Origin: an uncultured Gammaproteobacteria bacterium
Lineage (GTDB): Bacteria > Patescibacteriota > Patescibacteriia > VMEV01 > CAYQCH01
Direction: 5' to 3'
DNA length: 64,000 nucleotides
Assembly (NCBI GenBank): GCA_964503955.1
Contig: CAZDCG010000002.1
Span: 13,047-77,046, forward strand
The translations under genes and the position numbers were made by a program. This document shows positions 4,028 to 54,024 of the stretch, one piece after another (the stretch's first letter is position 1; every line of letters starts with the position of its first letter). The notes beneath the pieces are model-generated. The model was not told the DNA's origin. It did not search any database and worked only from the letters and a program-made list of their open reading frames with translations.

Positions 4028-4339
4028 TCCTCTGTTGATCGTGCTCAACAAGCGGGAGCGGCAGACCATGGTGAACAATAATTCAAGGCTTGTTTGAAGA
4101 GAAGGCATGTCAGCAGGAAATAACGGATTTTCTCTTGAAAATGGAGTATTTTGATGGTAGAGTACTCTATCAGGCGGCTTCGTAGCGCCCCCAGCTTTCC
4201 TTGCGCCAAAGTGTTTTCATGGCCGGTTGTTCTGCTTAGCTGCCAGTTTTGCTTGAATGTGCCGGCGAAACCTTTTATACTGCAGTATTGCCAGAAGCGT
4301 CATAAGTCGATGGCCGCACTTAACGCTTTTTTTGTCTCT

Positions 4340-5269: not shown

Positions 5270-5273
5270 ACGT

Positions 5274-7493: not shown

Positions 7494-7503
7494 TCTGAAC
7501 CGT

Positions 7504-30452: not shown

Positions 30453-30545
30453 GATTGACGAATCAAGAGCATTTTAGTATGGTTCATGCATGCAGAGGCT
30501 GATGCGGCCTTCTGCCATTTACCATAATCTATTGTAGAAAGGAAG

Positions 30546-30806
30546 GTGATTTTTCTGTCTAGCGTTGTCGATGTAAAGAAGAAAAAAGGCGAACGATTCG
30601 ATTCACTCTTGCGCCGTTTCAACAAACGAGTTATTGCGAGCGGAAAGCTGTTTCAGGCTCGCAAAATCCGTTACCGTGAACGTCCAATGAGCAAAACCCG
30701 CGTGAAAGGGCGCGCATTGCGACGAATGGAAATTGGAGATAAGCGCGAGTGGTTAAGAAAGACCGGCCAGCTGGTTGAAGATCAGCAGGGCCGCCGACGA
30801 AGATAA
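30546..30806 (+). CDS. rpsU: 30S ribosomal protein S21
   Basis: KKGERFDSLLRRFNKRV matches the S21 signature (ExFDxALRRFKR). Basic C-terminus. GTG start at 30546 just after the RBS aaaggaagg. Confidence 0.75.
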   Translation: MIFLSSVVDVKKKKGERFDSLLRRFNKRVIASGKLFQARKIRYRERPMSKTRVKGRALRRMEIGDKREWLRKTGQLVEDQQGRRRR

Positions 30807-30863: not shown

Positions 30864-32477
30864 ATGCGAAGTTTGAAGCCCCATTTGCGCGGCTTTGCCG
30901 GGTACCTGATACTCGCGATTGTTGTGCTCATTGGCGCAAACGCTGTCTTTAACACCCCTGCCTTGGCGCAGGTAGATGTTGGATTGGAGCAGGCTGAGCA
31001 GATTGGACTTACAGGAACCGATCCTCGACTCATTGTCGCTCGCATTATTCAAGTAGCCCTCGGCGTGCTGGGTATCACCGCCGTGGGGCTTCTTATTTAT
31101 GCGGGCTTTTTGTGGATGACATCCGGCGGGGAAGACGAAAAAGTCGGCCGAGCAAAGACGCTTTTGCGAAATGCGTTGATCGGCTTGATCCTGATTCTGT
31201 CCGCATTTGCCATCGTGACCTATGTCTTCAGCATTTTGCGCCCTGATCTGTATTCAACGCCTCCGATCGGTTCGCGGGGAGGGATTGGCGGTATCGGAGG
31301 CGGCGGAGGTTTCCCGATCGGTGTCATCTCCTCGCATTACCCGGATCGAGGACAAACCAATGTCGCGCGCAATACCAATATCATGGTGACATTCACCGAG
31401 CCGATACTTGTTGAAAGCATTATCGATAATGCCGGAACACCAGATAATCCCGCTGATGATCGTTTAAATACGGAAAACATTTTTATCCGACGTTCGGCCG
31501 ATGATCCAAATGATGGACCTTTCGTGCCGGCCGCAGCGGCTGCGTCTGAAGACGGACGTTCCTTTGTCTTTGACCCGATTGATCTTCTTGGTTCGTCTGA
31601 AGAAAACACCCTTTATACCGTCGTGCTTGGGGAAGGAATCACGACCGCGCAGGGAAGAGGCGCATTTGGAAATTTCGGTGCCTATGCATGGGAATTTGAA
31701 GTGGGAACCTTTATCGATCTTGAGCCGCCGCAGGTGGAAAGCGTGATTCCGGCGCAGAGTTCAACGCATCCTCGCAATGTCGTGGTGCAAATCAACTTTA
31801 ATGAAGCAATGAATCCGCTTACGGCCAGCGGAGAAGTAGGGGCTGGTTTTGATGCGATCTCGATCCGCCAAGCGGACGGCAGCGTCGTGGAAGGCCGATA
31901 CATGATCAGCAATCAGTATCGGACCGTCGAATTTATCACCAATGATTTGTGCGGGAAGAATTCCTGCGGCGAAGACGTGTTTTGTTTGCCCGGAGATGCC
32001 GCACTGACAGCTCTCCTGCGTGCGGCGACAATCAGTTTGTCACCCCCTACGGCGGCTTTTCCATATGACGGATTAACGGATGCGGCGGCAAATTCGCTCG
32101 ACGGAAATCTTGACGGTTCCGCGCAAGGTCCGCAAACGGATAATTATACCTGGTCGTTTCAAACAACCAATCAAATCGATTTGACCGCGCCGGTTATTGT
32201 CTCGGTATCGCCAAATCCATTTTCTACCCAGGTCGATCTGAATGCTCCGGTTACGGCAACTTTCAGCAAACCGCTTCAATTCAGCACCATCAACCGTAAA
32301 TCGGTGAGCGTGGACGGCCTGGAAGATTACCGGTTGAATGCCAGTTCGCAAGGCGGGCAATCTCGTATCGACATTCTGCATCGAGGGCTTTTGGAAGAGA
32401 CAACCTATACGCCGGTTGTGACATCAGATGTTCGCGATCTTTATCAGAATTGTTATCGCCCTTGTGTCGGTCCTTAA
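30864..32477 (+). CDS. Surface protein with an N-terminal T4SS-pilin-like two-helix domain and SbsA-type Ig-like repeats
   Basis: Signal peptide, then IIQVALGVLGITAVGLLIYAGFLWMTSGGEDEKVGRAKTLLRNALIGLILILSAFAIVTYVF (the hydrophobic-SGG-KAK-hydrophobic pattern of CPR VirB2/TrbC-like pilin domains). Gly-rich linker GGIGGIGGGGG. At least three repeats of the PPxVxSVxPxxxxxxVxxxxxIxxxFxExM type. Confidence 0.6.
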   Translation: MRSLKPHLRGFAGYLILAIVVLIGANAVFNTPALAQVDVGLEQAEQIGLTGTDPRLIVARIIQVALGVLGITAVGLLIYAGFLWMTSGGEDEKVGRAKTLLRNALIGLILILSAFAIVTYVFSILRPDLYSTPPIGSRGGIGGIGGGGGFPIGVISSHYPDRGQTNVARNTNIMVTFTEPILVESIIDNAGTPDNPADDRLNTENIFIRRSADDPNDGPFVPAAAAASEDGRSFVFDPIDLLGSSEENTLYTVVLGEGITTAQGRGAFGNFGAYAWEFEVGTFIDLEPPQVESVIPAQSSTHPRNVVVQINFNEAMNPLTASGEVGAGFDAISIRQADGSVVEGRYMISNQYRTVEFITNDLCGKNSCGEDVFCLPGDAALTALLRAATISLSPPTAAFPYDGLTDAAANSLDGNLDGSAQGPQTDNYTWSFQTTNQIDLTAPVIVSVSPNPFSTQVDLNAPVTATFSKPLQFSTINRKSVSVDGLEDYRLNASSQGGQSRIDILHRGLLEETTYTPVVTSDVRDLYQNCYRPCVGP

Positions 32478-32480
32478 CCT

Positions 32481-35400
32481 ATGAAGCGGATTTTGCTGAC
32501 CATTTTCATCGCGCTTTCCTTCTTTCTTCCTGCTTCCTCCGTTCTGGCGCAGGAAGCGGGGGCGGATTCTCCTGTTGAAACCGTCGTCCAGGAAACATCA
32601 TCGGTAAGCACCGGCTGGAGAGTTGCGCAGATTATCGCGCTGGCCGGGGCCGTCATCAGCCTTGGCATGCTGATTTACGGGGCGGTGTTGTGGCGCAATG
32701 CCGTGCAGAATAATGATTTGCTCATGGCCGACCGCGGCCGTAATCTAACCGTCTTGTTCGGTATCGTTTTTTTCCTGTTCCTTGTTCTATTGCTTATCAG
32801 CTTTGTGGTAATTGCGCGCCAGCAGTCGCGCCAGACGGAGCAACAGCAGCAAATACAAACAACCGGTACCGGCGGATTGAGCGTTCGGGACTCACTCTTG
32901 CTTGTTGAGGCGATTCCAAATTCCGCGGTTCCTATCCGCAATGTTGCTGTTCAGCTGCTGTTCAACCAACCCGTCAGTCAGATCAATGTAGAACAGCATA
33001 TTTTGGTATCAGCGCAAGAAGGAGAAGGACCGGTGGTCGGAACCTGGACCGTGGAAGGGGAATATGCCGTCTTTCAGCCGAATCAAGCCTGTCCCGCGCC
33101 CAATCAGAATCTGCGCTGTTTTGATGCCAACCAAACCTTTGTTGTGACTATTGCACAGGAATTGACGAGCGAAGACGGGGATGCGTTCCGTTGCTCGCTT
33201 GCCGCATCTTCCGAGCAATGCCGGTTTACCTTCACGACGGGAGAAGCGGTTGATTCCACCCCTCCGACGGCGCGCATCTCCTTGCCGCTCAATGATGCCG
33301 CGGTGGCTCAGGATTCCGCGCAGCAGGTAGAAGCGCTGGCAAGCGACGATCTGGCGGTGGCTTCCTTGCACTTCTTCGCGGATGGAGAACGAATCGGCGT
33401 ATCAGCCGCGCCGGGCAATGAGTTGCAAACTTCTTTTCGGGCATCCGCCATTTGGTTGACGGAAGGGCTCGCCATTGGATCGATGCATACGATCCGGGCG
33501 GTTGCGTATGATTTCGCCGGCAGAACGGGCGAAGCAGTGCCCGTGCAGGTGGAAATTCTTCCCGCTTACTGTTTTGACGGCCAGCAGAATGAAGACGAAG
33601 AAGGGCTTGATTGCGGAGGGCCGACCTGCCGCGCCTGCCAGGGAGCGGTCTGCAGCAGCAATGAGGATTGCGCATCAGGACTTTGCTTTAACGGTGTCTG
33701 TCAGGAATTCCCGGTGATTGAAGAAGTGATTTATCCAAACGGCGCTCCGGGAAACCTTGTGACGATTCGCGGGAAGAATTTCGGATCCGAGCCTGGATCC
33801 GTGATTTTCCTTGGAGGAGCCAGTGATGCGGATAATGTACCGGGGCAGCTTCCGCCATGCGAAGCATATTGGACGAATCAGGAAGTCATTATCGAGGTTC
33901 CAGCAGGAGCTGTCAGCGGGCCGCTTCGGCTTGAAACGGCACAGGCGCTCTACGATACCACCGACGACAGCAAAGGAGAGCGCGTTGTATTTGAAGTAAA
34001 CGATCTTGTCCGTCCAACGCTCTGCGCTGTTTTGCCGCCTTCGCAACAGGTGGGGCGATCTGTTCAGATTATCGGCAAAGCGCTTGGCGAGGAACCTGGC
34101 AAGGTCTTCTTCGGACAGAATGCCGCCAGCCGCGTTCAGGGCTGGGCCGATGACATCATTTCAGAAGTTTTTCTACCATCCATGCAGGCAGGTCCGGTTT
34201 CGGTCAGCGTGGAAGCGGCTGGAGAACGAAGCAATCCTGTGCACTTCCTTGTGCAGGAATCCGATACATTGCCGTTCATTGAATCGATCACGCCTGACCG
34301 CGGACCTGTCGGACAAATGTTCAGTCTGCGCGGGCGGCATTTCACCGCATCCGCGCTGGTTCGTTTTCTTGATCCGCGGACTGGGGAAACCATCCTTGCT
34401 GATACGCGATTGCCCCGGGAATGCGAGCAATATATTTCCAATCAGCAGCGCGCGTATCGCGTGCCAAATCTCGAACCGGGAACATATCAGGTTTATCTCG
34501 AAACGGAAATCGGCCAAAGCAATAGCGTTGATTTTGTGGTCACCCGCGGAGAACGCCTGCCAGGCCTTTGCGGCATGACACCGGACAATGGCCCGCTTGG
34601 CATTGAGGTCACGCTGCACGGAGAAGGGTTTGGAAGCCAAGCCGGCGCCGTGCGGTTCACTCCGCGCATTGATGACACGCAAATTCTTTCCTGGCGCGAT
34701 AACCGCGTGCAGGCGGTTGTGCCTGCGACAGCACAGTCAGGTCCTGTACAGGTTGTGAACGCGGCGGGCGCTTTAAGCAATGCTTTGGATTTCACCATTG
34801 GAACCTGCAGCCCGGATACATGCTCTGAAGGTCTTGTTTGTTGCGGCTCAGGCTCATGCCAGGCAGCCGGCAGCTGTGCGCAGAATATTCCATACTGTTC
34901 GTATCAATGGGTCTTTAGCACAGGTGATGATCTTGGCGGGCCTCCACGGGTGATTGAAGACGCTTCCTGCAGAAGCAATACGCAAAGCCCTTCTCCGTAT
35001 AAAGACACAAAAGACGCATGTTTGAACGCGCAAATCTCGGCGCGGTTTACCCACGACATGCTCGACAACTCGCTTTCAACCGACAATATCGTTGTACATC
35101 GCTGCAATACCGGCGACTTGCTTGATTCATCTCAATGCCAGGTCGAGGTCAATCTTGCGAGTCTCACCATCATCAATGCGGGACAACCAGGCGAGGGATT
35201 CATTGCCGCGCCGCAGGTCGCTCTTGAACCGGATACCTGGTACGAAGTTGTGCTCAGCACCGGGTTTACGGCTGAAAACGGGCTATCCATGGCATCACCG
35301 TATCGTTGGGTCTTTAAAACGCAGGTGGGAGACGGCCAATGCCAGGTCGATCATATCGAAGTTACACCAGCGTCCGCCACGCTCAGGCAGCTGCTTGATC

Positions 35401-37427
35401 GACAATCCTATGCTGCTCTTCCGATCGCTTTGAATTGCAATATTCTGAATCCTGATGAATTCACCTGGGGATGGCTGAGTTCGGACACCTCAAAAGCGCA
35501 AGTATTCTTCTCAAACGAGCCTCGAAATACGGCCACGGCCGTTGGACCAACTGATCCAGAACCGCCGGTACGCATCATTGGCCAATTGCCTGAATATGGG
35601 CTTTCTGATGAAGGACTTCTTACCGTGCGTTTGCAGCCGCCGCTGGTTGTGAACAAATGGCCGAATTGCGGCTCTGCCTGCGTGAATGCAATGATCGGTG
35701 CTCGCTTTGATCAAGCCATGAATGAATCTTCCGTGACCAACACGGCCAATGTTCAGCTATTCCGTTGTGCGGATCGCACCTGCGCTCGAGAGGGGATGGT
35801 TTCATCCGGGGTTTCTTCTCTGCGGTATAACCAAACCGATCAATCCCTCTTTTTCCTGCCGGCAGCCGGCGCTCTTGCTCAGAACACAACCTATCGCGTG
35901 GTTTTAAAGAATCTGACCAGCACCAGCGGCTTGGGATTAGGAAACCTCAATTATGACAGCGATGAGACAAGGGGGCTCGACAGTTATTCCTGGGTTTTCA
36001 GCGTGAGAGACAGCGCGGACCTTTGCACGGTTGAGGATGTCGCGGTGATCCCTTCTTTTGCTTCTTCTTCACTGATTGGTGAAGAATTCGATTATTTCTC
36101 TTTGCCGCTCTCTCCGCCGGATGCCTGCAGTCCTGAAGGACAATACCTCAATCCGGAAGCATATAACTGGGGATGGGCTTCCAGCCAGGCTGCGGTTGGA
36201 ACCGTGAGCACGGACGATATTGTTCCTCCTTCAGGATTCGTCGATCCGTATCAGATCACGAGAAGTACAGGACCTGGAGAAACTTCCATTACGGCACGCA
36301 CGCAGGACGCGAGCGGTGACGGCGATTTGCTTGTTGCCTGCGGATTCCAATCCGATCTTGATTGTCCGGCTCCGGCAACCGTGGATACCTTTGGCGTCGG
36401 CTCGGATTCCTGCTGCCGCGAGCGTCCAAGTGTGCGTTCATTCAATCCGCCTTCCGGATCAGAATCTGTTTGCACGACGCTTGGTATCGAGGTGCAATTC
36501 AACCAGGAAATGAATATCAGTTCCTTGCTCAGCAATATAGTCCTTGAGCGTTTCAACGGCTCGCAGCCATGCGCCGCGGTGCAGACAACCGCCTGGCAGA
36601 GAATGAAGGGGGTTGTGCATCGACTGCTTGCCTGGATGCTTCCGCCGGCATCAGCGCAGACTGAACATTGGTGTCAGATCCCTGCCAATATTGTGGTTAC
36701 GCAATACCTGGAAGGTTCCAGAGCGACCGTTTTTCCTCAATCTGAACTTGCGCAAAATACGCAATACCGTGTGCGCGTACAGGGGGATGCGGCCATCAAT
36801 GACGGAGTGAATCAGGGAGTAAGAAGCGCCTTTGATGTTTCCATGAATGGCGATGCCGTAAGCCTGTTCAGCACGGGCGAGGCGAAATGTAATCTTGATC
36901 TTGTTGATGTGATCATCACACCTCCGGGGAAACCTGGTTCAAAAGATGTCTTCTTCTGCGCGGTTCGCAACGATTGTCCGGGGGACGTGAATCCGGCAGT
37001 AGACGGCAATCAGCATCGATATGTTGCTGTTGGGCGCGATTTACGAGGTTTTGTCGTGCCAGGCAATTACCGATGGACAACAAACTCCGGCTCATTGGCC
37101 GGCTTGAACGCAACCGACCAGCAGGAGGTTGAAGTCAGCACGCAGCCGGAAAACGGAAATGCTTATGTTACCGTTCACGCGAACGCGGTGGCACCATCGG
37201 AGGGAAGCGTTTCGCGAACCGTCATGATCAAAATCTTCCTCTGTGAAAATCCATGGCCAAGCATTCTCGATTTCCCGTATACCGACTTCGATTTCAACTA
37301 TGATACATTCTACTGCCGCGATTTTGGCGAACCTGGTGTTTTCGATGACCTTCCTCCGCTCTCATCGCCGATTGTCGGAGACGCGGTAGGGGGCTTCCTG
37401 CACGAACGATTATTCATTGTTGAATGA
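32481..37427 (+). CDS. Giant 1648-aa surface protein with an N-terminal pilin-like domain, at least three IPT/TIG domains, Ig-like domains and a Cys-rich module
   Basis: N-terminus VAQIIALAGAVISLGMLIYGAVLWRNA...LFGIVFFLFLVLLLISFVVIA. IPT/TIG-like units VIEEVIYPNGAPGNLVTIRGKNFG, IESITPDRGPVGQMFSLRGRHF and LCGMTPDNGPLGIEVTLHGEGFG. Cys-rich block CFDGQQNEDEEGLDCGGPTCRACQGAVCSSNEDCASGLCFNGVCQ. Confidence 0.65.
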   Translation: MKRILLTIFIALSFFLPASSVLAQEAGADSPVETVVQETSSVSTGWRVAQIIALAGAVISLGMLIYGAVLWRNAVQNNDLLMADRGRNLTVLFGIVFFLFLVLLLISFVVIARQQSRQTEQQQQIQTTGTGGLSVRDSLLLVEAIPNSAVPIRNVAVQLLFNQPVSQINVEQHILVSAQEGEGPVVGTWTVEGEYAVFQPNQACPAPNQNLRCFDANQTFVVTIAQELTSEDGDAFRCSLAASSEQCRFTFTTGEAVDSTPPTARISLPLNDAAVAQDSAQQVEALASDDLAVASLHFFADGERIGVSAAPGNELQTSFRASAIWLTEGLAIGSMHTIRAVAYDFAGRTGEAVPVQVEILPAYCFDGQQNEDEEGLDCGGPTCRACQGAVCSSNEDCASGLCFNGVCQEFPVIEEVIYPNGAPGNLVTIRGKNFGSEPGSVIFLGGASDADNVPGQLPPCEAYWTNQEVIIEVPAGAVSGPLRLETAQALYDTTDDSKGERVVFEVNDLVRPTLCAVLPPSQQVGRSVQIIGKALGEEPGKVFFGQNAASRVQGWADDIISEVFLPSMQAGPVSVSVEAAGERSNPVHFLVQESDTLPFIESITPDRGPVGQMFSLRGRHFTASALVRFLDPRTGETILADTRLPRECEQYISNQQRAYRVPNLEPGTYQVYLETEIGQSNSVDFVVTRGERLPGLCGMTPDNGPLGIEVTLHGEGFGSQAGAVRFTPRIDDTQILSWRDNRVQAVVPATAQSGPVQVVNAAGALSNALDFTIGTCSPDTCSEGLVCCGSGSCQAAGSCAQNIPYCSYQWVFSTGDDLGGPPRVIEDASCRSNTQSPSPYKDTKDACLNAQISARFTHDMLDNSLSTDNIVVHRCNTGDLLDSSQCQVEVNLASLTIINAGQPGEGFIAAPQVALEPDTWYEVVLSTGFTAENGLSMASPYRWVFKTQVGDGQCQVDHIEVTPASATLRQLLDRQSYAALPIALNCNILNPDEFTWGWLSSDTSKAQVFFSNEPRNTATAVGPTDPEPPVRIIGQLPEYGLSDEGLLTVRLQPPLVVNKWPNCGSACVNAMIGARFDQAMNESSVTNTANVQLFRCADRTCAREGMVSSGVSSLRYNQTDQSLFFLPAAGALAQNTTYRVVLKNLTSTSGLGLGNLNYDSDETRGLDSYSWVFSVRDSADLCTVEDVAVIPSFASSSLIGEEFDYFSLPLSPPDACSPEGQYLNPEAYNWGWASSQAAVGTVSTDDIVPPSGFVDPYQITRSTGPGETSITARTQDASGDGDLLVACGFQSDLDCPAPATVDTFGVGSDSCCRERPSVRSFNPPSGSESVCTTLGIEVQFNQEMNISSLLSNIVLERFNGSQPCAAVQTTAWQRMKGVVHRLLAWMLPPASAQTEHWCQIPANIVVTQYLEGSRATVFPQSELAQNTQYRVRVQGDAAINDGVNQGVRSAFDVSMNGDAVSLFSTGEAKCNLDLVDVIITPPGKPGSKDVFFCAVRNDCPGDVNPAVDGNQHRYVAVGRDLRGFVVPGNYRWTTNSGSLAGLNATDQQEVEVSTQPENGNAYVTVHANAVAPSEGSVSRTVMIKIFLCENPWPSILDFPYTDFDFNYDTFYCRDFGEPGVFDDLPPLSSPIVGDAVGGFLHERLFIVE

Positions 37428-37478
37428 TATTTCGTGATGCATGGAACTTTGGTATCATAGAAAGATGAAATCATTCTT

Positions 37479-40124
37479 ATGAAACGACTTTTCTTTTTCT
37501 TCGCCTTCGCGCTGCTCGCAGCACTTCCATTCGCGAATGCTCACGCGCAATCCGGTCCGCGCGACGCGATCGCCATACGCGTGGTCCCAAATCCGGATCG
37601 CATGCCGCCGCTTTTGTGGTATCGAAACAATGTCCCAAATCCCGGAGCTCCTGTTCCGCTCGAGATTGACGGATATCCTGCCGTGCGCGACGGGCGGACG
37701 GTTTACGTGGCTGCAACCAATTACGCACCTGAAGCCGGCGCGCTTTATAGTAATATCTACCTCATTTCACATAGCGAAGCGGCAGGGGAGAAGGTGCAGG
37801 CGGTTTTTGAAGAATTTCTACAGGAATTCAGATTCAACTCTAATATCGCCGATGATGAGACCCGGGCGCAGCTGCGCCGCGATATGAGGCGAGCCAATGA
37901 TCTTTATGCGATCCGGTTGAACCTGGAGCAATACCGCCTCAGAACAGGCTCGTATCCAAACTTTGAAGCGGGCAGCTATCTGCCAAATACCACGTATAGC
38001 ACGTGGCCGTCATGGCAAACGACATTAGGCAATTTGCTAGGAACTGCCTTGCCGGTTGATCCTCGCAACCAGTTTATCGGGTGTGAAGCGCCTTTTGACG
38101 GTTCAACCTGCTGGGATCAGACCGCCAGACAATTTGCTTGTCCGCCGCAAGCGTACGTGTACGGATACCGTGCAACAGGAAGCGGCGCGACCTATCAGCT
38201 ATTTGCGAATTACGAGTACAAGGGGCCTGGCAATTGGCAATCCGTTACATTGCAGCAGCAATCAGGCGACCAGTGTTTCAATTTCGCTTTTTCAGACGTT
38301 TCAGACCCTGACGGAGATGGAATCCTAACAGGAGCGGATAATTGTGAATTTGAGCATAACCCAGATCAAACTGACAGTGATGCCGACGGCATTGGCGACG
38401 CATGCGATCTCTGCCCGAATGATCCCACCAATGACCGCGATAGTGACGGTATTTGCGGCAATATCGACAATTGTCCGACGATTGGCAATCCGTCTCAGGC
38501 GGATCTTGATGATGACGGAATCGGCGATGCCTGTGATTTTCAAGGATGCGGGAACAATGTCACCGAAGGATCCGAGGTCTGCGACGGTCAGTCCGGCATC
38601 GGACCGTTTCAAAGCTGCTCCGCTGATTGCCGGTCGGTTATCCAGCTCAGTTATTGCGGCGACGGGGTGGTCAACAATCCCAATGACCAGGGACTTTTTG
38701 AAGAGTGCGATGGCAATAGTGAAGAAATCATCTGCGAACAGCGGATCAACGGCTATGTAACGCAGCGCCGAAGAGAGTGCCGCGATACCTGCCGGTTTAC
38801 GCCATTTACTGCTTGCGAACCGATTGAATATGCGGGAGACGGTATTGTTAACGGATTTGAACAATGCGACGCAGGCGATCAAAACGGTGTTCAGTGCCAG
38901 GCTGCTTATGATCAGACCTGCCAATACTGCACTTCCGATGGACGTTTTGAATTGGCTCAAGGACCAACATGCGGCGATGGAATCGTTAATGGACCGGAGC
39001 AATGTGATGAAGGCGTGAACAATGGACGCGTTTGCACGCCCGCCTATGGAAGAACGTGTACGTATTGCGGCAACTCCTGCCGCATCGAAACGGTTCCGGC
39101 TCCATTCTGCGGGGACGGGACAAGAAATATTCCGTTTGAAGAATGCGATTCTGAAGAGGAGGATATCCCTTGTGAATCGCCGCCGGGGTATTTATATAAA
39201 AAACGCTTTTGCGCCACGCAATCAACCGCTTCGAATGTCGCCTGCAGCTGGCTGCCATTTGAAGCCTGCCGCTCGATCGGTTCCTGCGGAGACGGCATGA
39301 TCAATGGTCCGGAACCATGCGATGATGCCAAAACACCTGGCTTATGTGAACAATGCAAGATCAAGGATAATACAGTGAGCCTTACCTACAATATCGAAGG
39401 GACGAGAATCGCTTCAGCATGCGTGGGCAAAAAATCAGCCTGGCCGACAAATTTCCGCTTTGGAGGAGCTATCCCATTGACAACCGCAGAATTGAATCAA
39501 ACCTGTAATAATGCGGCAATCATCAATCCCTTTACCCGGGATGGGCAGCCATTCAGTTCTCCTTGGGGATGGCCAAGAAACGGCATGCTTTCTACGCTTC
39601 CGATTTCTATGAGGGTGGAAACTATTTTCTGGCAGCATTGGAATTGCGGCGCGCATTTTGTTGCATTGCGAAATTCCGGCGTTGAGGTAACGAGCTCGCC
39701 GTTCCATGTTCCAAAACAGGGAAAACATTGCTCAAATGACTGGCAAGTTCAGGTTGTAGACACTGGCGGCGTAACAGCCGACCAAATCCTGGCGGATGAA
39801 AGCGGTTCCCAGCCAGGCCATCTCCCGGGAGGAATCCTTAAGGGGTACTACCAGTTCGGGCAGACGAGATCGATTCGAACGTCTGATCGCATCGTCGTGC
39901 TGGAGCGTCTTTCTGAACGCAGAGATACCATGGGAAATCTGCTGCCGAATGATACATATAAACTTCTCAGCACTAGCGGCAATGGATTCATGGTCTGGTT
40001 TGGAAATACCGCCACAACGCTTGCAAGCCAGGGAAGCTCTTCCACGCCAAATACCAGCACTTTCGTACTCGGCTGCGTAGATTTCGACAATAATCGCACT
40101 TGTGACTTCATGCAGGAACTATGA
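37479..40124 (+). CDS. Secreted 881-aa protein with thrombospondin type-3 calcium-binding repeats and CGDG...CD cysteine-rich repeats
   Basis: Signal peptide MKRLFFFFAFALLAALPFANAHA. TSP3-like units DPDGDGILTGADNCEFEHNPDQTDSDADGIGDACDLCPNDPTNDRDSDGICGNIDNCPTIGNPSQADLDDDGIGDACD. At least six repeats of the CGDG(V/I/T)xNxxExCD type. Confidence 0.65.
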   Translation: MKRLFFFFAFALLAALPFANAHAQSGPRDAIAIRVVPNPDRMPPLLWYRNNVPNPGAPVPLEIDGYPAVRDGRTVYVAATNYAPEAGALYSNIYLISHSEAAGEKVQAVFEEFLQEFRFNSNIADDETRAQLRRDMRRANDLYAIRLNLEQYRLRTGSYPNFEAGSYLPNTTYSTWPSWQTTLGNLLGTALPVDPRNQFIGCEAPFDGSTCWDQTARQFACPPQAYVYGYRATGSGATYQLFANYEYKGPGNWQSVTLQQQSGDQCFNFAFSDVSDPDGDGILTGADNCEFEHNPDQTDSDADGIGDACDLCPNDPTNDRDSDGICGNIDNCPTIGNPSQADLDDDGIGDACDFQGCGNNVTEGSEVCDGQSGIGPFQSCSADCRSVIQLSYCGDGVVNNPNDQGLFEECDGNSEEIICEQRINGYVTQRRRECRDTCRFTPFTACEPIEYAGDGIVNGFEQCDAGDQNGVQCQAAYDQTCQYCTSDGRFELAQGPTCGDGIVNGPEQCDEGVNNGRVCTPAYGRTCTYCGNSCRIETVPAPFCGDGTRNIPFEECDSEEEDIPCESPPGYLYKKRFCATQSTASNVACSWLPFEACRSIGSCGDGMINGPEPCDDAKTPGLCEQCKIKDNTVSLTYNIEGTRIASACVGKKSAWPTNFRFGGAIPLTTAELNQTCNNAAIINPFTRDGQPFSSPWGWPRNGMLSTLPISMRVETIFWQHWNCGAHFVALRNSGVEVTSSPFHVPKQGKHCSNDWQVQVVDTGGVTADQILADESGSQPGHLPGGILKGYYQFGQTRSIRTSDRIVVLERLSERRDTMGNLLPNDTYKLLSTSGNGFMVWFGNTATTLASQGSSSTPNTSTFVLGCVDFDNNRTCDFMQEL

Positions 40125-40738
40125 AAAAGCCTCTTCTGATTGTGCTATCAATACTGCTTCTGGGCGGTGCGTACATGGGATACAAAGAAATCCGCCGTAT
40201 GCGTTTGCTCAGCTCGGGGCGCGATGTCCTAGTGGTAAACAAGAAGGCAGGAACCTATTCCTTTACCAGCTTGATGGAATCAGACGATATTACGAGAGCT
40301 TACAAAGCGATTGGTTATACGGAGGAACTTTCCGAGGAGAAAATTCAAAAACGGATTGGCGGGCTTACTCTCATTGGTACAAAGTTCGATCCGATTCCGC
40401 CGGAATCAATCGCGGTTGTGCCCAATGCCTTTCAGCAGGATGCCTGGAGCAATGCCTTGCAGGTACTTACGTCTGAGCAGCGGGAGTTGTGCGATCAGCT
40501 GGGAAGATCAGAAGATGTGCAATCCTGCCTTTTTCGTCATTACATCTCGCAATTGCTGGCCACGCAGAATGTGGAAGGTTGCAAGGCTATTTTTGTTGAA
40601 GCATTCGTCCAGGAATGTGAAAACGTCGTCTCCCAAAATCTCCAAAACGCCGTTTATGATGCGGATAACGACCATTTGATTGATCAGTACGAATTCAAAG
40701 CTGATCCGGAATCATTTGAAGCGGATCCATTAGGATAA
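40121..40738 (+). CDS. Membrane-anchored protein with a C-terminal EF-hand-like loop
   Basis: N-terminal TM LLIVLSILLLGGAYMGY. C-terminal DADNDHLIDQYE fits the 12-residue EF-hand loop pattern (D-x-D-x-D...I...E). Its start overlaps the stop of the 881-aa gene by 4 nt. Confidence 0.45.
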   Translation: MKKPLLIVLSILLLGGAYMGYKEIRRMRLLSSGRDVLVVNKKAGTYSFTSLMESDDITRAYKAIGYTEELSEEKIQKRIGGLTLIGTKFDPIPPESIAVVPNAFQQDAWSNALQVLTSEQRELCDQLGRSEDVQSCLFRHYISQLLATQNVEGCKAIFVEAFVQECENVVSQNLQNAVYDADNDHLIDQYEFKADPESFEADPLG

Positions 40739-40764
40739 GCAAGTTCCTTTGCTGTGAAAAATCC

Positions 40765-40770
40765 TTTATA
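40765..40770 (+). promoter_or_regulatory. Perfect TATAAT -10 hexamer upstream of the 40801 gene
   Basis: cctttataatgc lies 30 nt upstream of the ATG. No clear -35. Confidence 0.25.
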
Positions 40771-40800
40771 ATGCATTTACTGTCGCCTTAAACGAATTCT

Positions 40801-41424
40801 ATGTTCGACGATCAACCACAAAGAGAACCGGAAGACATTTTTTCCAATACGGACCCGTTGCAGAATCCTGCCGGTCAAAACCCGGTTCAGTCAAACCAGG
40901 TTCCACCGGCTCCAGCTCCTCAACTTACACCAGAACCTCCAAGCGGGGGCAATAAAATGGTCGTGGTCGCGATCATCGTCATCGCTGCCGTCCTCTTGTT
41001 GATTGCCGTTCTGGTCGGCCTATGGCTTGTGCGAAGAGGTGAATCCGTTCAGCAGCCTGTCCAAAATCAGCAGACACAGCAGGAAGCAACGAATAATGAG
41101 ACAAATACTTCTGAGCAGCTATCAGAAGCTCAGCAGGAAACGCAATTGCCTGCGGTTCCGGTTGATACTGACGGCGATGGATTAAGCGACGAAGAAGAGC
41201 GCGTACTTGGCACCTCGCCGATCGCGGCAGACAGCGACCAGGACGGATTGAATGATTATGAAGAGGTCATGGTCTGGAATACGGATCCTCTCAATCCTGA
41301 CACGGATGGAGACACGTATTCAGACGGCCAGGAAGTAAGCTCCGGCTACGATCCAAATCAGGAAGGAGCACGTTTGCTCGAGTTAAACGGCGCAACGACA
41401 TTGCCAGCACCTGTCAATCAATAA
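40801..41424 (+). CDS. Single-pass membrane protein with a Q-rich spacer and three DxDxDG calcium-binding-type repeats
   Basis: Pro/Gln-rich cytoplasmic N-terminus. TM VVVAIIVIAAVLLLIAVLVGLWLV. Repeats VDTDGDGLSDEEE, DSDQDGLNDYEE and DTDGDTYSDGQE. Confidence 0.5.
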   Translation: MFDDQPQREPEDIFSNTDPLQNPAGQNPVQSNQVPPAPAPQLTPEPPSGGNKMVVVAIIVIAAVLLLIAVLVGLWLVRRGESVQQPVQNQQTQQEATNNETNTSEQLSEAQQETQLPAVPVDTDGDGLSDEEERVLGTSPIAADSDQDGLNDYEEVMVWNTDPLNPDTDGDTYSDGQEVSSGYDPNQEGARLLELNGATTLPAPVNQ

Positions 41425-41427
41425 TGT

Positions 41428-42414
41428 ATGGACGAACGAAACAACAGTTTGATCCCCTCCTCAGGAATGGGATCCCTTGATGGACGCATCAGCGTGATGC
41501 CACAGGCTTATTTGCCGAAAACATCGTCAGGGCTTTCCACAAAAGCGCTGTTGTTTATTCTTGGCGGTCTTATTGTCGTGGCGCTCATTGTTGTTATTGC
41601 TGTTCTGCTGGTTAGCCAATCAAGAGAAGCGGCACAGCTCGCTGCTCAGCAGCAAGTTCAGCAGCCGGCGCAAACGCAGACCAGTCAGCCAACCCAGCCA
41701 GTTCAGGAAAGCACGCAGACAACCGAGCAGCCGTCCTCTCCAATCCAACAGGTTGATACAACGCAGGAACCACAAAATCAAATTGTTTTGCCAGACATTT
41801 TCGCAAGCGTGGCCCTGCCGGCTGTCGACACCGACCAGGACGGTCTGACTGATCTTGAAGAACAGCTCTTTGCCACCAGCCCCGCTGTTCCGGATACCGA
41901 TCAGGATGGATTCCTTGATGGCTCAGAGCTTCTTAATTTGTATGATCCAGCAAGTCCTCGCGCGCTTCTAGAGATTTCGCCGCAGATCAAGATTGCCAGA
42001 AATGATTCAAGGGGCTTTCAATTCTATATTCCTGTTTCCTGGACGGCTTCAAAACAAACCCCTGACGGACGCCTGTTCACGGTTCTGCCTGATTCTGGAG
42101 ATCAGCAGTTCAGCTTTTCAACCTATGATAATCCGGATCGATTATCAGCGGTTCAGTGGTATCAGGCCAATAATCCGGGCGCAGATTTAAATCAGTTTGT
42201 GAATTTCAGCAATGAGGCCGGCTGGGTGGGAATCCAGTCCCGTGATTCGCGCCTGATTATCGCCACCTTTGGAGAATCAGGGGCAGGGGCGCGCGCATTC
42301 ATTTTCGTCATGCATTATGATACTGGCGCGTCAAACGTCCTTGAGTATGCGAGCGTCTGGCAGATGATGGCCAACAGCGTAACGGTCGCGGACACGTCCA
42401 CGGTTACTCCATAG
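41428..42414 (+). CDS. Paralogous single-pass membrane protein with a Q-rich spacer, two DTDQDG repeats and a C-terminal domain of about 150 aa
   Basis: TM LLFILGGLIVVALIVVIAVLLV. Q-rich low-complexity stretch. VDTDQDGLTDLEEQ and DTDQDGFLDGSE repeats. Same architecture as the preceding gene. Confidence 0.5.
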   Translation: MDERNNSLIPSSGMGSLDGRISVMPQAYLPKTSSGLSTKALLFILGGLIVVALIVVIAVLLVSQSREAAQLAAQQQVQQPAQTQTSQPTQPVQESTQTTEQPSSPIQQVDTTQEPQNQIVLPDIFASVALPAVDTDQDGLTDLEEQLFATSPAVPDTDQDGFLDGSELLNLYDPASPRALLEISPQIKIARNDSRGFQFYIPVSWTASKQTPDGRLFTVLPDSGDQQFSFSTYDNPDRLSAVQWYQANNPGADLNQFVNFSNEAGWVGIQSRDSRLIIATFGESGAGARAFIFVMHYDTGASNVLEYASVWQMMANSVTVADTSTVTP

Positions 42415-42416
42415 CT

Positions 42417-42905
42417 ATGGCAAAGCGGATCTCGGTTGATCTTGTGAAAAAGACGCGCGTCGGTTATCAGACCGACGTTTCTTCTTATGCGAAAAAAATC
42501 GTCAGCAGCAAGGCGATGCCTTCAAGATTGAACAGATTTCAGAAGTTTTCCGTTGAGCTGATTCTGGTTGACGACAAAGAAATCCAAATCTTGAACAAAC
42601 GTTATCGAAAAAAAAATAAACCGACCGACGTACTCTCTTTTGCGTACTGGCAGGATGCAGATCCAAAGCTTGATCCCGTTTGTTTCCTGGGGCAGATCAT
42701 TATCAGCTCGGATACTCTTCGCCGGCAAGCAAAAGCGCAGGGACATGCCTATAGGACCGAATTGGGCATCCTTTTTGTCCACGGTCTTTTGCATATACTG
42801 GGCTTTGATCATGAAACAGAAAAAGAGCTAAAAACCATGCTGGAAATGGAGCGAATTTTCCTTGGGGATAACGCCGGCCTTATCGCACGCAGCAGGCTTG
42901 AGTAA
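42417..42905 (+). CDS. ybeY: rRNA maturation endoribonuclease YbeY
   Basis: HGLLHILGFDHE zinc-binding motif (H-x3-H-x5-H). Confidence 0.88.
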   Translation: MAKRISVDLVKKTRVGYQTDVSSYAKKIVSSKAMPSRLNRFQKFSVELILVDDKEIQILNKRYRKKNKPTDVLSFAYWQDADPKLDPVCFLGQIIISSDTLRRQAKAQGHAYRTELGILFVHGLLHILGFDHETEKELKTMLEMERIFLGDNAGLIARSRLE

Positions 42906-42992
42906 GATACGTATTCAGAGGGAAACAAGGTCTTTCGTGCTGAGCAGAATCTGTGTTCAGGCTGCCGTATTGGCAGAGCTTTTCTGAACACT

Positions 42993-42998
42993 TATAAT
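42993..42998 (+). promoter_or_regulatory. TATAAT -10 hexamer upstream of ftsA
   Basis: acacttataatgtcac lies about 60 nt upstream of the ftsA ATG. Confidence 0.25.
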
Positions 42999-44386: not shown

Positions 44387-45607
44387 ATGGAGATCAAACC
44401 GGATATCGAAACATTCGCAAAAATAAAAGTCATTGGAGTAGGGGGAAGCGGAGGATCAACCGTGAACCAGATGATCGCCTCAAAAATCAGAGGCGTGGAA
44501 TTTGTTACGATCAATACCGACGCGCAGGCTTTGCATCATTCGCGCGCGGCTGTGCGGATGCATATCGGAAAAACCATCACGCGCGGGCTTGGTGCCGGCA
44601 TGGATCCTGAAATGGGCAGAAAAGCCGCGGAAGAGAATCAGAACGAACTGCGCGAGATGCTCAAAGATACGGATATGGTATTTGTCACCTGCGGTCTTGG
44701 CGGGGGTACGGGAAGCGGTGCCGCGCCGGTTGTGGCGGGCATTGCCAAGGAGCTTGGCGCGCTGACCATCGGCGTTGTTACAAAGCCGTTTACGTTTGAA
44801 GGCAATCAGCGCCGCCAGATCGCAGAGAAAGCATACGAAGAATTATCCAGCAAGGTTGATACCATCATTTCAATTCCCAATGACCGTATTCTGCAGGTGA
44901 TCGAAAAGAGAACCAGCATGATGGAAGCCTTTGACATTGTCGACGATGTTTTGCGCCAGGGCGTGCAGGGAATCTCGGAACTCGTCACGATACACGGCGT
45001 AACCAATGTGGACTTTGCCGACGTGAAGGCGATTATGAAGGATGCAGGTTCCGCTTTGATGGGGATCGGCTATGGTTCAGGCGATAATCGCGCTGTTGAA
45101 GCGGCCAAAGCGGCCATCAACAGCCCATTGCTTGAAGTCGCTATCGACGGTGCCAAGGGAATTCTCTTCACCATCACCGGCGGCAAAGACCTTGGCATGT
45201 ATGAGCTCAATGAAGCGGCAACCATCATTACGGAAAAAGCGGATCCGAATGCCAAGATCATTTACGGAACCGTTATTGATGAAAATATGAAGGACGAGCT
45301 GCGCATTACGGTGATTGCGGCTGGATTTGGTAAACAAAAAGTTGCAAATCCTGCCAATTTCGAACGCCAGACGGCAAATTTCGGACAGAAGCTCGCAGCT
45401 GATGCGTATCAGAATCCCTTGATGAGGCTTTCGCAGCAAAAAACGGAGGATACATCTTCTACGTATCGTTCTGTCCGCGAAGAAGCCATGCAGGATCCGA
45501 TTATGACAGAGCCTGTGCGTCAGGAAGAAACCGCGACACAGCGTGTTGAAGCTGATGAGGAAGAGGATTTGGAAATCCCGGCCTTTATCCGGAAAAAAAT
45601 GATGTAG
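44387..45607 (+). CDS. ftsZ: Cell division GTPase FtsZ
   Basis: GVGGSGGSTV, tubulin signature GGGTGSGAAPVVA and NTDAQAL. Acidic C-terminal tail with a conserved EIPAFIRKK peptide. Confidence 0.97.
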   Translation: MEIKPDIETFAKIKVIGVGGSGGSTVNQMIASKIRGVEFVTINTDAQALHHSRAAVRMHIGKTITRGLGAGMDPEMGRKAAEENQNELREMLKDTDMVFVTCGLGGGTGSGAAPVVAGIAKELGALTIGVVTKPFTFEGNQRRQIAEKAYEELSSKVDTIISIPNDRILQVIEKRTSMMEAFDIVDDVLRQGVQGISELVTIHGVTNVDFADVKAIMKDAGSALMGIGYGSGDNRAVEAAKAAINSPLLEVAIDGAKGILFTITGGKDLGMYELNEAATIITEKADPNAKIIYGTVIDENMKDELRITVIAAGFGKQKVANPANFERQTANFGQKLAADAYQNPLMRLSQQKTEDTSSTYRSVREEAMQDPIMTEPVRQEETATQRVEADEEEDLEIPAFIRKKMM

Positions 45608-49253: not shown

Positions 49254-50549
49254 CTAAAACTGGGCGGCTTCAGTGGATCCCGCGAGTGCGGTGGTCTTCA
49301 CTTCGCTGCCTTCGATCGTCTGGCGGATCTGGTCGTAGAGACCGGTCCCCACTTCCTGTTGATGCGCGGCGAACGTGTAGCCGAGCTCTCTCGCGAGGAA
49401 CTCCTCCTGCTGCAGTTCGCTGTACGCGGCCATGCCATGGTCGCGGTAGGCGCGTGCAAGCTTGAAGGAGTGATAGTTGTTGCTGTGGATTCCTGCGAGG
49501 GTCACGAACTGGAACACGTAGCCGTACTCGGCAAGTTGCGCCTGGAATGCGGCGATCTCGCCAAGATCCAGGTTGCGCCGCCAGTTGAAGGAAGGCGAGC
49601 AGTTGTACGCCAGGAGCTTGCCAGGGTGTTCAAGGAAGAACTCCTCGGCGAACTCGCGGGCGTAGCCGACATCGGGCGTGGAGGTCTCACACCAGATCAT
49701 GTCGGCGTACCTTCCATACGCCTTCGCGCGGGCGATGGCGGACTCGATCCCGTTCTGGACCTCGTAGAAACCGTTGGCATCGCGCCTGCCGGTGATGAAA
49801 GGCTGGTCACGGGGATCGATGTCGGACGTGAGCAAGGTCGCGGAGTCCGCGTCGGTTCGCGCCACAATGATGGTGGGCACGCGGTAACTGTCCGCAGCGA
49901 GCCGTGCTGCGACGAGATTCTTCTCGGCCATTCGGGTGGGGATCAGAACCTTCCCGCCCAAGTGGCCGCACTTCTTCTCACCGCCGAGCTGATCTTCGAA
50001 GTGGACGCCGGCTGCTCCAGCCTCGATCATCGCCTTCATCAGCTCAAACGCGTTCAGCGGGCTGCTTGGCGCGTCGCCGTCCGCCACCATGGGCAGGAGG
50101 AAATCGACGTAACCGTCGTCTCCAGGCAAGACACGTCTGGCCCACTGAATCTTGTCAGCCTGCTGCTGCGCCCGTGCGATCCGTCTGACAAGCGTCGGAA
50201 CGGTGTTGACGGGATACAGGGCAAGGTCCGGATACGTCGTCTCCGCCGTATTGGCGTCGGCCGCAGCCTGCCAGCCGGAGATGTAGAGCGCCTGCAAGCC
50301 CGCACGAGCGTATTGCTGCGCCTGCATGCCGGTGAGCGCTCCCAGCGTGTTCACGTAGCCGTTGCGGGCCTTGCCATGAAGCAGATCCCAGAGGCGTTCG
50401 GCCGCGTACCTGGCGTGCGGGTACTCCGGTAGGAGCGACCCGTACAGGTCAACGGCCTTGTCAGGCGCATATGGCCTGTGTACGTTCTTCCAGCGGCGAT
50501 TCTCCTTCCAGTCTTCGTTCAGAGACGCGGTCAACTTTCCCCGATCCAT
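49254..50549 (-). CDS. aceA: Isocitrate lyase
   Basis: KKCGHLGGKVL signature (K[KR]CGH). About 431 aa from MDRGKL. Local GC is about 63% against a window background of about 50%. Confidence 0.85.
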   Translation of the reverse strand: MDRGKLTASLNEDWKENRRWKNVHRPYAPDKAVDLYGSLLPEYPHARYAAERLWDLLHGKARNGYVNTLGALTGMQAQQYARAGLQALYISGWQAAADANTAETTYPDLALYPVNTVPTLVRRIARAQQQADKIQWARRVLPGDDGYVDFLLPMVADGDAPSSPLNAFELMKAMIEAGAAGVHFEDQLGGEKKCGHLGGKVLIPTRMAEKNLVAARLAADSYRVPTIIVARTDADSATLLTSDIDPRDQPFITGRRDANGFYEVQNGIESAIARAKAYGRYADMIWCETSTPDVGYAREFAEEFFLEHPGKLLAYNCSPSFNWRRNLDLGEIAAFQAQLAEYGYVFQFVTLAGIHSNNYHSFKLARAYRDHGMAAYSELQQEEFLARELGYTFAAHQQEVGTGLYDQIRQTIEGSEVKTTALAGSTEAAQF

Positions 50550-50817
50550 GGGCCTACCTTTCAGATTGGCCCCCCCAACAAGTGTTTCCCACATGACAAC
50601 TGAAGAAAGAACGCGCATCTCCGTTTGCTTTCACAATCAGAACCCTGCGATCACCTGGAGATGCTGAAAAAGCGTAACAGGAACATTGAATTCTTGTCAA
50701 TTGGTGACGATAGTGTTTGAAAGAGAAAGAAAGGCTAATGTCAGCAAAATTTGACGACAGTTTGCAAAAAGTGCCTATTCACCCAAAAAAACAATGTTTT
50801 TGCGATCTTGGGTCATG

Positions 50818-53974: not shown

Positions 53975-54024
53975 AATTTGCTATACTATCAACAGCCCAC
54001 ACCCTTGTTCAAGGGTGTTTTTAT

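Follow-up and report, generated by a model that had tools for sequence, protein, structure and literature searches.

A class-wide gene module beside ybeY, ftsA and ftsZ in Patescibacteria, predicted to encode surface proteins with VirB2-type N-terminal hairpins

We analysed a stretch of 64,000 nucleotides (nt) of contig CAZDCG010000002.1 (hereafter the window, at its full length of 64 kb), in which six consecutive open reading frames (ORFs) on the plus strand, labelled g1 to g6, occupy positions 30864-42414 directly upstream of ybeY, ftsA and ftsZ (Table 1). A preliminary description made from the letters alone had already placed six genes here; the ORFs lie exactly where it put them, and the identity of the YbeY, FtsA and FtsZ products that it named downstream is confirmed by Pfam. 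Judged by their homologues (more than 456 full-length ones for g1 and more than 100 for g6), g1-g6 are real genes beyond chance. Overall, our comparisons indicate that the locus is a real, ancient and class-wide module, in which known domains are combined in an undescribed architecture and context.

The product of g1 starts with a signal peptide (amino acids (aa) 1-35) that ends in AxA/Q, where the slash marks the predicted cleavage site. It is followed by a hairpin, a disordered glycine-rich linker (aa 126-152) and three Ig-like Big_5 domains that contain conserved cysteine motifs; in the hydropathy profile the signal-peptide-like segment likewise precedes two strongly hydrophobic helices. 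The hairpin matches the Pfam family T4SS_pilin (PF18895; T4SS, type IV secretion system) over aa 60-121 with 33.0 bits, above the gathering cut-off (GA) of 26.6, and the three Big_5 domains (PF13205) together score 101 bits (E=6e-29). The NCBIfam model for Mbov_0395 pilin-like proteins is matched at 30.9, under its cut-off of 40. An AlphaFold2 (AF2) model built on a 92-sequence alignment (predicted local distance difference test score (pLDDT) 88, predicted TM-score 0.73) contains the signal helix, two helices at aa 54-86 and 91-125 (pLDDT around 90), a disordered linker at aa 129-148 and three beta-sandwich domains. Foldseek searches with this model return generic strings of Ig domains (the BIg domains of LdtMt2, the surface-layer (S-layer) protein SbsC, titin and cadherins) and no specific functional lead.

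Members of the g1 family agree most closely in the hairpin (mean pairwise identity 0.57, against 0.48-0.54 for Ig domains A and B and 0.27-0.28 for the linker and signal peptide), and the basic loop of the hairpin keeps the consensus MTSxGNEEKxxxAKK. Because the hairpin is better conserved than any other part, it probably does more than anchor the protein, and its conservation argues for a specific protein-protein or protein-lipid interaction. The ectodomain is highly conserved too, and in a housekeeping context (see below) this fits a core structure made constitutively better than a variable adhesin specific to a host; as a whole, the conservation pattern of g1 is atypical of diversifying adhesins.

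The g2 product also carries a signal peptide (AxA/Q) and a two-helix hairpin, here diverged, and continues with a Big_7 domain, a cysteine-rich segment, three TIG/IPT domains and then at least three Big_5 domains (47 cysteines overall). Pfam recognises four Big_5 (102 bits), three TIG (PF01833; 57 bits) and one Big_7 domain (26.2 bits, scored on a segment of the protein). The hairpin of the window protein itself fails PF18895, and its matches to TrbC (E=0.047 in Pfam, E=9e-4 for PRK13871) and to a hidden Markov model (HMM) of the g1-family hairpin (E=0.007) are weak; hhalign of the g1 profile against the g2 N-domain gives a probability of 16% (E=0.0016). The orthologues of g2 in all eight divergent loci that were compared do pass PF18895, with 30.8-41.6 bits, and their N-termini share the g1 motif. 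The window protein aligns colinearly with its orthologues from residue 3, and the divergence of the hairpin is confined to the window's clade (the window and loci L004 and L005). The pilin-like nature of window g2 thus follows from the orthologues, the colinear alignment and the weak profile match taken together. Since the orthologues carry a g1-type hairpin and are colinear with window g2, g1 and g2 are tandem paralogues. The preliminary description had proposed a VirB2/T4SS_pilin-like two-helix domain at the N-terminus of two proteins: this holds for g1 directly and for g2 by way of its orthologues and colinearity, whereas the window g2 sequence stays below the family cut-off. The Ig/IPT domains that it noted are matched by the Big_5, TIG and Big_7 HMMs.

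The g3 product, predicted to be secreted, has a signal peptide of its own as its only membrane-directed segment and is organised into an N-domain, four DxDxDG loops of the thrombospondin type 3 (TSP3) kind, six cysteine-rich repeats of the pattern CGDG..N...E.CD and a clade-specific C-domain. The loops match TSP_3 (PF02412) with 37.7 bits (GA 25), and COMP/thrombospondin in the PDB with E=4.5e-22. The TSP3 repeats reported earlier are thereby borne out, and the cysteine-rich ones are present by pattern, but the family suggested for the latter, TIGR02232, is matched below its cut-off (15.6 against 20.8 bits), as is DUF4215 (14.8 against 27); the resemblance to both seems to be one of style, with no demonstrated membership. 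Neither the N-domain (aa 24-275) nor the C-domain (aa 620-881) has a Pfam or PDB sequence match, and the impression of a pseudopilin-like globular N-domain was dropped for want of support from these searches.

A comparison with relatives points to the origin of g3. Many of them have a single g2 ORF of 2,900-3,450 aa (up to 3,469), with homology to g3 in its C-terminal part. In L026, g2 aa 1249-1648 and g3 aa 27-565 map only 28 nt apart inside one ORF of 3,300 aa. The gene is split in the window's clade (L004, L005 and L007), where the second half has a signal peptide of its own, and another subgroup has a g2 of about 1,650-1,900 aa without the g3 part. On these alignments g3 is a fission product, namely the detached C-terminal half of g2. 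The two halves are still adjacent, and the fission predicts a physical complex of g2 and g3. Length and sequence vary far more in g2 than in g1, which makes g2 the likelier of the two to offer a variable interaction surface.

The g4 product has a short N-terminal hydrophobic segment of ambiguous topology, four cysteines and, near its C-terminus, the 12-residue loop DADNDHLIDQYE (aa 180-191), which fits the EF-hand pattern without an HMM match. No Pfam, NCBIfam or PDB match was obtained for this protein, and tblastn against the fetched loci detects it in L004 and L005 only (29-31% identity), so that g4 is specific to the window's clade.

Genes g5 and g6 form a paralogue pair with shared modules: a predicted cytoplasmic N-terminal tail of 40-55 aa precedes one transmembrane (TM) helix, which is followed by a linker and by TSP3-type repeats. 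The g5 tail contains MFDD and EDIF, its linker is rich in Gln and Thr, and its three TSP3_bac repeats (PF18884), with as many DxDxD loops, score 58.5 bits (GA 25). The g6 product, for which other gene callers start at M14 (315 aa), has the conserved tail motif VMPxx[FY], a disordered Gln-rich linker, two TSP3-type DxDxD loops that align with the g5 repeats (E=6e-10) and an alpha/beta domain with a PsbP/Mog1/LpqN-like fold (Foldseek match to CyanoP, E=4e-4). Although some g6 orthologues carry PF18884, window g6 has no Pfam match above threshold; a hit to EF-hand_5 (E=0.008, below GA) overlaps a TSP3 loop. The AF2 model of g6 (50 sequences, pLDDT 85) shows the TM helix, disordered linker, TSP3 loops and a confident alpha/beta domain, whose PsbP/LpqN/Apa/DcrB-like fold is typical of extracytoplasmic envelope proteins. 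The tail motifs are kept across distant orthologues, as MFD[DE] and EDIF in g5 (16-orthologue alignment) and as [IV]x[VT]MPxx[FY] in g6, and are absent from the other ORFs of the window. The g6 motif loosely resembles the C-terminal peptide of the FtsZ of this genome (EIPAFIRKK), though the spacing differs. Weak NCBIfam matches to ZipA, SepX, FliL and RodZ-like models reflect the TM helix and low complexity, and are far below the cut-offs. None of the six proteins has a C-terminal LPXTG motif, by which sortase anchoring was ruled out, and none has an SLH domain in Pfam. Calcium-binding motifs, after which the preliminary description named the whole six-gene module, are supported as TSP3 in g3 and g5; extending them to all six products would overstate the case, since g1 and g2 match no calcium-binding family and g4 has the EF-hand pattern only. 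Repeats like those of g5 and g6 are elsewhere fused to sortase, YkuD L,D-transpeptidase and NlpC/P60 domains (P0181, P0182, P0211, P0213, P0215 and P0223), which hints at TSP3_bac as a cell-wall-associated module.

Table 1. Features of the locus and of the remainder of the window (positions in the 64-kb window).
Feature	Position (nt)	Strand	Residues or size	Remark
g1	30864-32477	+	537 aa
g1 hairpin	31023-31238	+	aa 54-125
g1 Big_5 domains	31320-32474	+	aa 153-537	three domains
g2	32481-37427	+	1648 aa
g2 hairpin	32613-32825	+	aa ~45-115	diverged
g3	37479-40124	+	881 aa
g3 TSP3 loops	38286-38543	+	aa 270-355	four loops
g3 Cys-rich repeats	38544-39353	+	aa 356-625	six, by pattern
g4	40121-40738	+	205 aa
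g5	40801-41424	+	207 aa
g5 tail motif region	40801-40850	+		orthologue alignment
g5 TM helix	40960-41028	+	aa 54-76
g5 TSP3_bac repeats	41155-41355	+	aa 119-185	three repeats
g6	41428-42414	+	328 aa	alternative start at nt 41467
g6 tail motif region	41491-41520	+		VMPQAYLPK; orthologue alignment
g6 TM helix	41539-41625	+	aa 38-66
g6 TSP3-type loops	41815-41952	+	aa 130-175	two loops
g6 alpha/beta domain	41980-42387	+	aa 185-320
Promoter-like site	30455-30483			consensus scan; upstream of bS21-like ORF
bS21-like small basic ORF	30546-30806	+		between HisRS and g1; 57-nt gap to g1
ybeY	42417-42905	+		Pfam YbeY E=1.8e-35; starts 2 nt past g6
Terminator-like hairpin	42962-42976	+		between ybeY and ftsA, consensus scan
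Strong promoter-like site	42970-42998	+		TTGGCA-17-TATAAT; overlaps the terminator-like hairpin; consensus scan
FtsZ C-terminal peptide	45570-45600			EIPAFIRKK
ABC transporter set	4151-8436	+		three genes
ORF without Pfam match	11701-15939	-	1412 aa
Isocitrate-lyase-family ORF	49254-50618	-		Pfam ICL E=1.8e-100
ComEC-like ORF, Competence	53881-55500	+
ComEC-like ORF, Lactamase_B	55337-56296	+

We compared the locus with those of relatives, obtained by a scan of one genome per species from which 80 loci were fetched; window proteins were located by tblastn and ORFs were chained. Relatives of g1 are encoded in 478 species genomes, and nearly all of the full-length homologues carry both PF18895 and PF13205. 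Those that are named are listed as 'Ig-like domain-containing protein' of Patescibacteria, Parcubacteria, Uhrbacteria or Falkowbacteria, and the fetched loci include Uhr-, Falkow-, Komeili- and Buchananbacteria (Patescibacteria/Parcubacteria group in NCBI), which we take to be members of class ABY1 in GTDB. The organism is a Patescibacteria relative, as the preliminary description had implied. Many contigs among L004-L083 that gene content and homology clearly place in Patescibacteria bear the title 'uncultured Gammaproteobacteria bacterium', apparently as a placeholder or by mislabelling.

The order LepB-HisRS-(bS21)-g1-g2-...-g5-g6-YbeY-FtsA-FtsZ is found in most of the 80 loci, even though identity in g1 is no more than 35-45%. 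The gene directly after g1 is g2-like in 59 of the 66 loci with enough downstream sequence (four more show g2 homology in interrupted ORFs), HisRS lies upstream of g1 in 51 of 64, and all loci that reach far enough continue with g5, g6, YbeY, (DAGK), FtsA and FtsZ. The DAGK_prokar gene between ybeY and ftsA (L084 19033-19407; ORFs of about 120 aa in L008, L024, L029, L031 and L033-L036) is a feature of the relatives, whereas the window has a gap of only 155 nt at this place. For the 43%-identical relative L084, independent gene calls and precomputed Pfam annotation give the same order, with T4SS_pilin on g1 and g2 and TSP3_bac on g5; here YqeY and RelA/SpoT genes are inserted between HisRS and g1. 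In the window itself the module is preceded by Pth, Der and LytR-CpsA-Psr (all on the minus strand), LepB and HisRS, and YbeY, FtsA and FtsZ are followed by an M23 peptidase and HtrA (Pfam).

Since g3 is a detached half of g2 and g4 is restricted to one clade, the conserved core consists of four genes: g1, g2, g5 and g6. The six-gene unit of the preliminary description thus remains as six adjacent ORFs, while the unit shared across relatives is this smaller core. With this conserved order the cluster is no variable adhesin island; its genes show strong synteny across relatives instead of being scattered, and the pilin, TIG and TSP3 HMMs on which the description had staked its reading do match.

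The genes are closely spaced, with gaps from g1 to g6 of 3, 51, -4, 62 and 3 nt, the g3 stop and g4 start sharing a 4-nt ATGA overlap. ybeY is likely the last gene of the unit, as context and not as a member of the surface module. The small basic ORF ahead of g1 matches Ribosomal_S21 with 18.4 bits, under the GA of 27 (23.6 bits for the gene at the same position in L084), and is probably the first gene of the module's transcription unit. The promoter-like site between ybeY and ftsA is the best of the region (11 of 12 consensus matches) and suggests that ftsA-ftsZ can be transcribed separately; given this site, co-transcription of the module with ftsAZ, which had been put forward as a check, is not required. 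The module and ybeY may therefore be read as one transcription unit, with ftsAZ driven on their own. In the scans as a whole, promoter-like sites are mildly enriched (24 found against 16 expected) and terminators are not (25 against 23.3 expected from shuffles); neither an Rfam nor a tRNA scan of the window gave a hit. The GC content of the module region (0.50-0.54) is in line with the window, and this match, together with the synteny in relatives, ruled out horizontal transfer of the module.

Genes of the VirB4/VirB6 type are absent among the annotated and large ORFs of the window, as is virB3, and none lie in the flanks of about 10 kb around g1 in relatives. The g1-family hairpin HMM, run against all six-frame ORFs of the window, finds g1 (130 bits) and weakly g2 only, hence there is no small-pilin array in the window. 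Against 1.84 billion representative proteins, the g1-hairpin profile matches 64,243 clusters at E<=1e-3, of which 18,550 reach E<=1e-10. The best 150 matches include proteins of 500-3,600 aa with an N-terminal hairpin as well as proteins with 2-17 tandem hairpins. One of them, P0234 (two hairpins), lies inside a six-gene array of small PF18895 genes that is followed by an 803-aa protein without Pfam match (loci L086/L087), and this context ties the g1 hairpin to the pilin arrays of the literature. Among the tandem-hairpin proteins (P0230-P0373), P0258 has 17 matched stretches in 1775 aa. Small 'stand-alone pilins' among the matches were left unused, at least P0284 being a contig-end fragment of a g2 orthologue. 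Searched against the PDB, the profile finds no solved pilin at E<=10 and chance TM matches to glycine receptors (E>0.1), as expected for divergent short TM proteins.

The remainder of the window contains several features apart from the module. The isocitrate-lyase-family ORF, unexpected for a minimal-metabolism Patescibacteria-like genome, lies in the highest-GC stretch of the window (0.565) and is overlapped on the opposite strand by a 393-aa ORF. The long ORF without Pfam match lies where GC is lower (0.44-0.47) and the AT skew strongly negative (-0.2 to -0.25). A ComEC-like gene is present as two overlapping ORFs in different frames, perhaps because the gene is split or frameshifted. The three-gene set ahead of dnaG and rpoD encodes an ABC transporter ATPase, a fused ABC-2 permease/ABC_transp_aux (GldG-like) protein and a DUF4340 protein.

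The T4SS of Patescibacteria is reported to be related to monoderm conjugation systems, and VirB2-like pilins have been reported in 1,948 assemblies, where 2-11 small genes often form an array close to virB4; the T4SS loci of ABY1 are accompanied by comF, recG and radA (PMC12102498). Pilin array and T4SS are essential in Southlakia epibionticum (PMC10633639). Their function in Patescibacteria has been called unknown (PMC12857230) or 'completely unknown' (PMC11665869), and the envelope of the candidate phyla radiation (CPR) has been described as unexplained (PMC5220378). The literature searched covers only arrays of small VirB2-like pilins by virB4 (PMC12102498, PMC10633639, PMC12857230). A limited literature search, which is no proof of absence, retrieved no published account of this cluster, of fusions between the hairpin and large ectodomains or of an ftsAZ-adjacent locus. 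The earlier statement that no described system is recognised agrees with this search, with the addition that the domains are known and their combination is undescribed.

The preliminary description considered an attachment, fibre or coat role, which is plausible. The reading that we favour, tentatively and with somewhat less than even confidence, is that the module encodes a core Ca2+- and disulfide-stabilised assembly of the envelope or surface, anchored by VirB2-type hairpins and present across a large Patescibacteria lineage. The paralogues g1 and g2 would be exported by Sec, their signal peptides presumably being cut at AxA/Q, and the hairpin, its two ends facing outwards, would hold them in the cytoplasmic membrane. 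A flexible glycine-rich linker would connect the second helix to rigid, disulfide-containing Ig-like strings (three Big_5 domains in g1; ten or more Big_5, TIG and Big_7 domains in g2) that would reach across the wall as far as the cell surface; the many cysteines and the Ig, TIG and TSP3 modules argue for an extracellular location of the ectodomains. In the window's clade g3 would be secreted separately and most likely stay bound to g2. The TSP3 loops of g3, g5 and g6, by analogy with their repeat family, would bind Ca2+ and stiffen or bridge the assembly, and g5 and g6 would act as single-pass partners that fasten it to the membrane, and possibly also to a partner in the cytoplasm, through their tail peptides and their TSP3 and PsbP-like domains. 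The hairpin may let g1 and g2 oligomerise specifically or dock onto other VirB2-like pilins. The product would likely be a fibrillar coat or a scaffold on the surface, made constitutively and serving cell integrity and contact between cells, and the envelope- and division-type genes on both sides (LytR-CpsA-Psr, LepB, FtsA/Z, M23 peptidase and HtrA) count for such a scaffold.

Several points weigh against this scaffold. None of g1-g6 has an SLH anchoring domain or an LPXTG motif, and Ca2+ binding is deduced from repeat families. The window g2 hairpin is too diverged for PF18895, so that any specific function of the hairpin may be relaxed in this clade. Synteny with housekeeping genes in small and stable genomes can be a sign of genome stasis instead of a joint function. 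The g2-g3 complex and the roles of g5 and g6 are predictions, as is the surface role as a whole.

Alternatively, g1 and g2 might be genuine subunits of a pilus, either its major pilin or, with better odds, minor or tip pilins; their hairpins would be pulled out of the membrane and polymerised alongside small pilins by a Patescibacteria T4SS whose VirB4/VirB6 are encoded elsewhere, and the giant Ig/TSP3 ectodomains would then be displayed outside a conjugative-type pilus as built-in adhesins. We regard this as rather unlikely. In its favour, g1 and the g2 orthologues exceed the GA of PF18895, the hairpin profile scores members of small-pilin arrays as strongly as g1, and no segment is more conserved than the hairpin with its basic loop. 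F-pilin shows its C-terminal extensions on the outside of the pilus, and VirB2 is cleaved at Ala/Gln, the cut predicted for g1 and g2. Ectodomains of 400-3,300 aa on every subunit would nonetheless crowd a helical pilus, the hairpin of window g2 is diverged, and the genes sit in a constitutive housekeeping context instead of a T4SS locus, with neither VirB4, VirB6 nor small pilin genes in the window or within about 10 kb of g1 in relatives. VirB2-like arrays and T4SS are, on the other hand, widespread among Patescibacteria, ABY1 included, and essential to one cultivated species (PMC12102498, PMC12857230, PMC10633639). We also judge it unlikely that a lipid-associated fibre or lattice forms from polymerised g1 and g2 hairpins, whether or not a T4SS takes part and possibly with small pilins, and that its outside is covered by the giant Ig/TSP3 ectodomains. 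Should this be true, it would be an undescribed surface organelle of monoderm bacteria, constitutive and encoded beside division genes, and it could be the surface layer or the pilus-like appendages seen on ultra-small groundwater CPR cells.

The genes could also encode functionally unrelated surface or membrane proteins whose order is kept because tiny genomes rarely rearrange, with the hairpin as a merely convenient anchor. The whole stretch from Pth, Der, LytR, LepB and HisRS to YbeY, FtsA and FtsZ is equally conserved and functionally mixed, g3 and g4 come and go between clades, and L084 tolerates the YqeY and RelA/SpoT insertion. Yet g1-g2 and g5-g6 stay adjacent with gaps of 3-30 nt where g1 is only 35-45% identical, both pairs are module-sharing paralogues, the halves of the g2/g3 fission are kept side by side, and the hairpin is conserved beyond the need of a generic anchor; we consider an unrelated set quite unlikely. 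We see still less chance for a part in division or wall growth, in which g5 and g6 would be bitopic proteins with tails docked on FtsA/FtsZ or another cytoskeletal partner, and their extracellular parts, together with g1 and g2, would arrange newly made wall or surface at the septum. The direct adjacency to ybeY-(dagK)-ftsA-ftsZ is conserved, an M23 peptidase and LytR are nearby, the tail motifs (MFD[DE], EDIF, VMPxx[FY]) persist in distant orthologues, and TSP3_bac is fused elsewhere to wall enzymes (sortase, YkuD, NlpC/P60). The likeness of the g6 motif to the FtsZ C-terminal peptide is loose and the spacing is unlike, however, the matches to ZipA, SepX, FliL and RodZ-like models are driven by TM helix and low complexity far below cut-offs, ftsA has its own promoter-like site, and g1 and g2 are linked to division by position alone.

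Envelope building and host contact of Patescibacteria/CPR are an acknowledged gap, for which the locus gives named and alignable candidates: g1, g2, g5 and g6 may underlie the surface structure throughout one CPR class. The pilin-type hairpin has, it appears, a further use at the N-terminus of giant surface proteins, which are deeply conserved and encoded next to ftsA and ftsZ, away from any T4SS locus. A natural fission (g2 and g3) here predicts a protein complex, and the locus frames the question whether VirB2-like domains in monoderms are polymerising pilins or membrane anchors.

The closest known counterparts each share one part of the module. The DxDxDG loops resemble those of COMP, TSP-1/2 and bacterial TSP3 proteins (g3 against COMP, E=4.5e-22; g5 against TSP3_bac, 58 bits). 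The models of Myxococcus MtsC, MtsD and CglD are matched partially and in the repeat only (45.8 against 350 for MtsC, 32 against 400 for CglD), and unlike the Myxococcus proteins those of the module have no MYXO-CTERM signal and no OmpA domain. The C-domain of g6 is similar in fold to PsbP/Mog1-like CyanoP, to LpqN/Apa/MTC28 of M. tuberculosis, to DcrB and to the type VI secretion immunity proteins TplEi/Tsi3, but without a sequence-family match (7-15% identity) and attached to a TM helix, Gln-rich linker and TSP3 loops. Extracellular Ig strings as in g1 are found in SbsC of the Geobacillus S-layer (PDB 4uic) and in the wall-spanning BIg domains of M. tuberculosis LdtMt2, which Foldseek ranks first for the ectodomain; this is a generic fold likeness at 10-15% identity, and g1, without SLH, LPXTG or lipobox, would be anchored by its VirB2-type hairpin instead.

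A further parallel is with the VirB2/TrbC pilins of T4SS (PF18895; PMC10633639, PMC12102498), with which g1 and g2 share a long signal peptide ending AxA/Q, two hydrophobic helices and a short charged loop. The similarity extends to the VirB2-like arrays: the g1 and g2 orthologues pass the same family, the g1-hairpin profile retrieves array members, and g1 and g2 are themselves tandem paralogues. T4SS pilins have only about 70-130 aa, whereas the hairpin makes up the first 125 residues or so of g1 and g2 proteins of 537-3,450 aa, and their C-terminal fusion makes head-to-tail cyclisation impossible. Instead of lying by virB4, virB6 or virB3, both genes have a housekeeping and division neighbourhood. 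In contrast to the fast-diverging pilin arrays, g1 and g2 are present in one copy each and conserved as orthologues.

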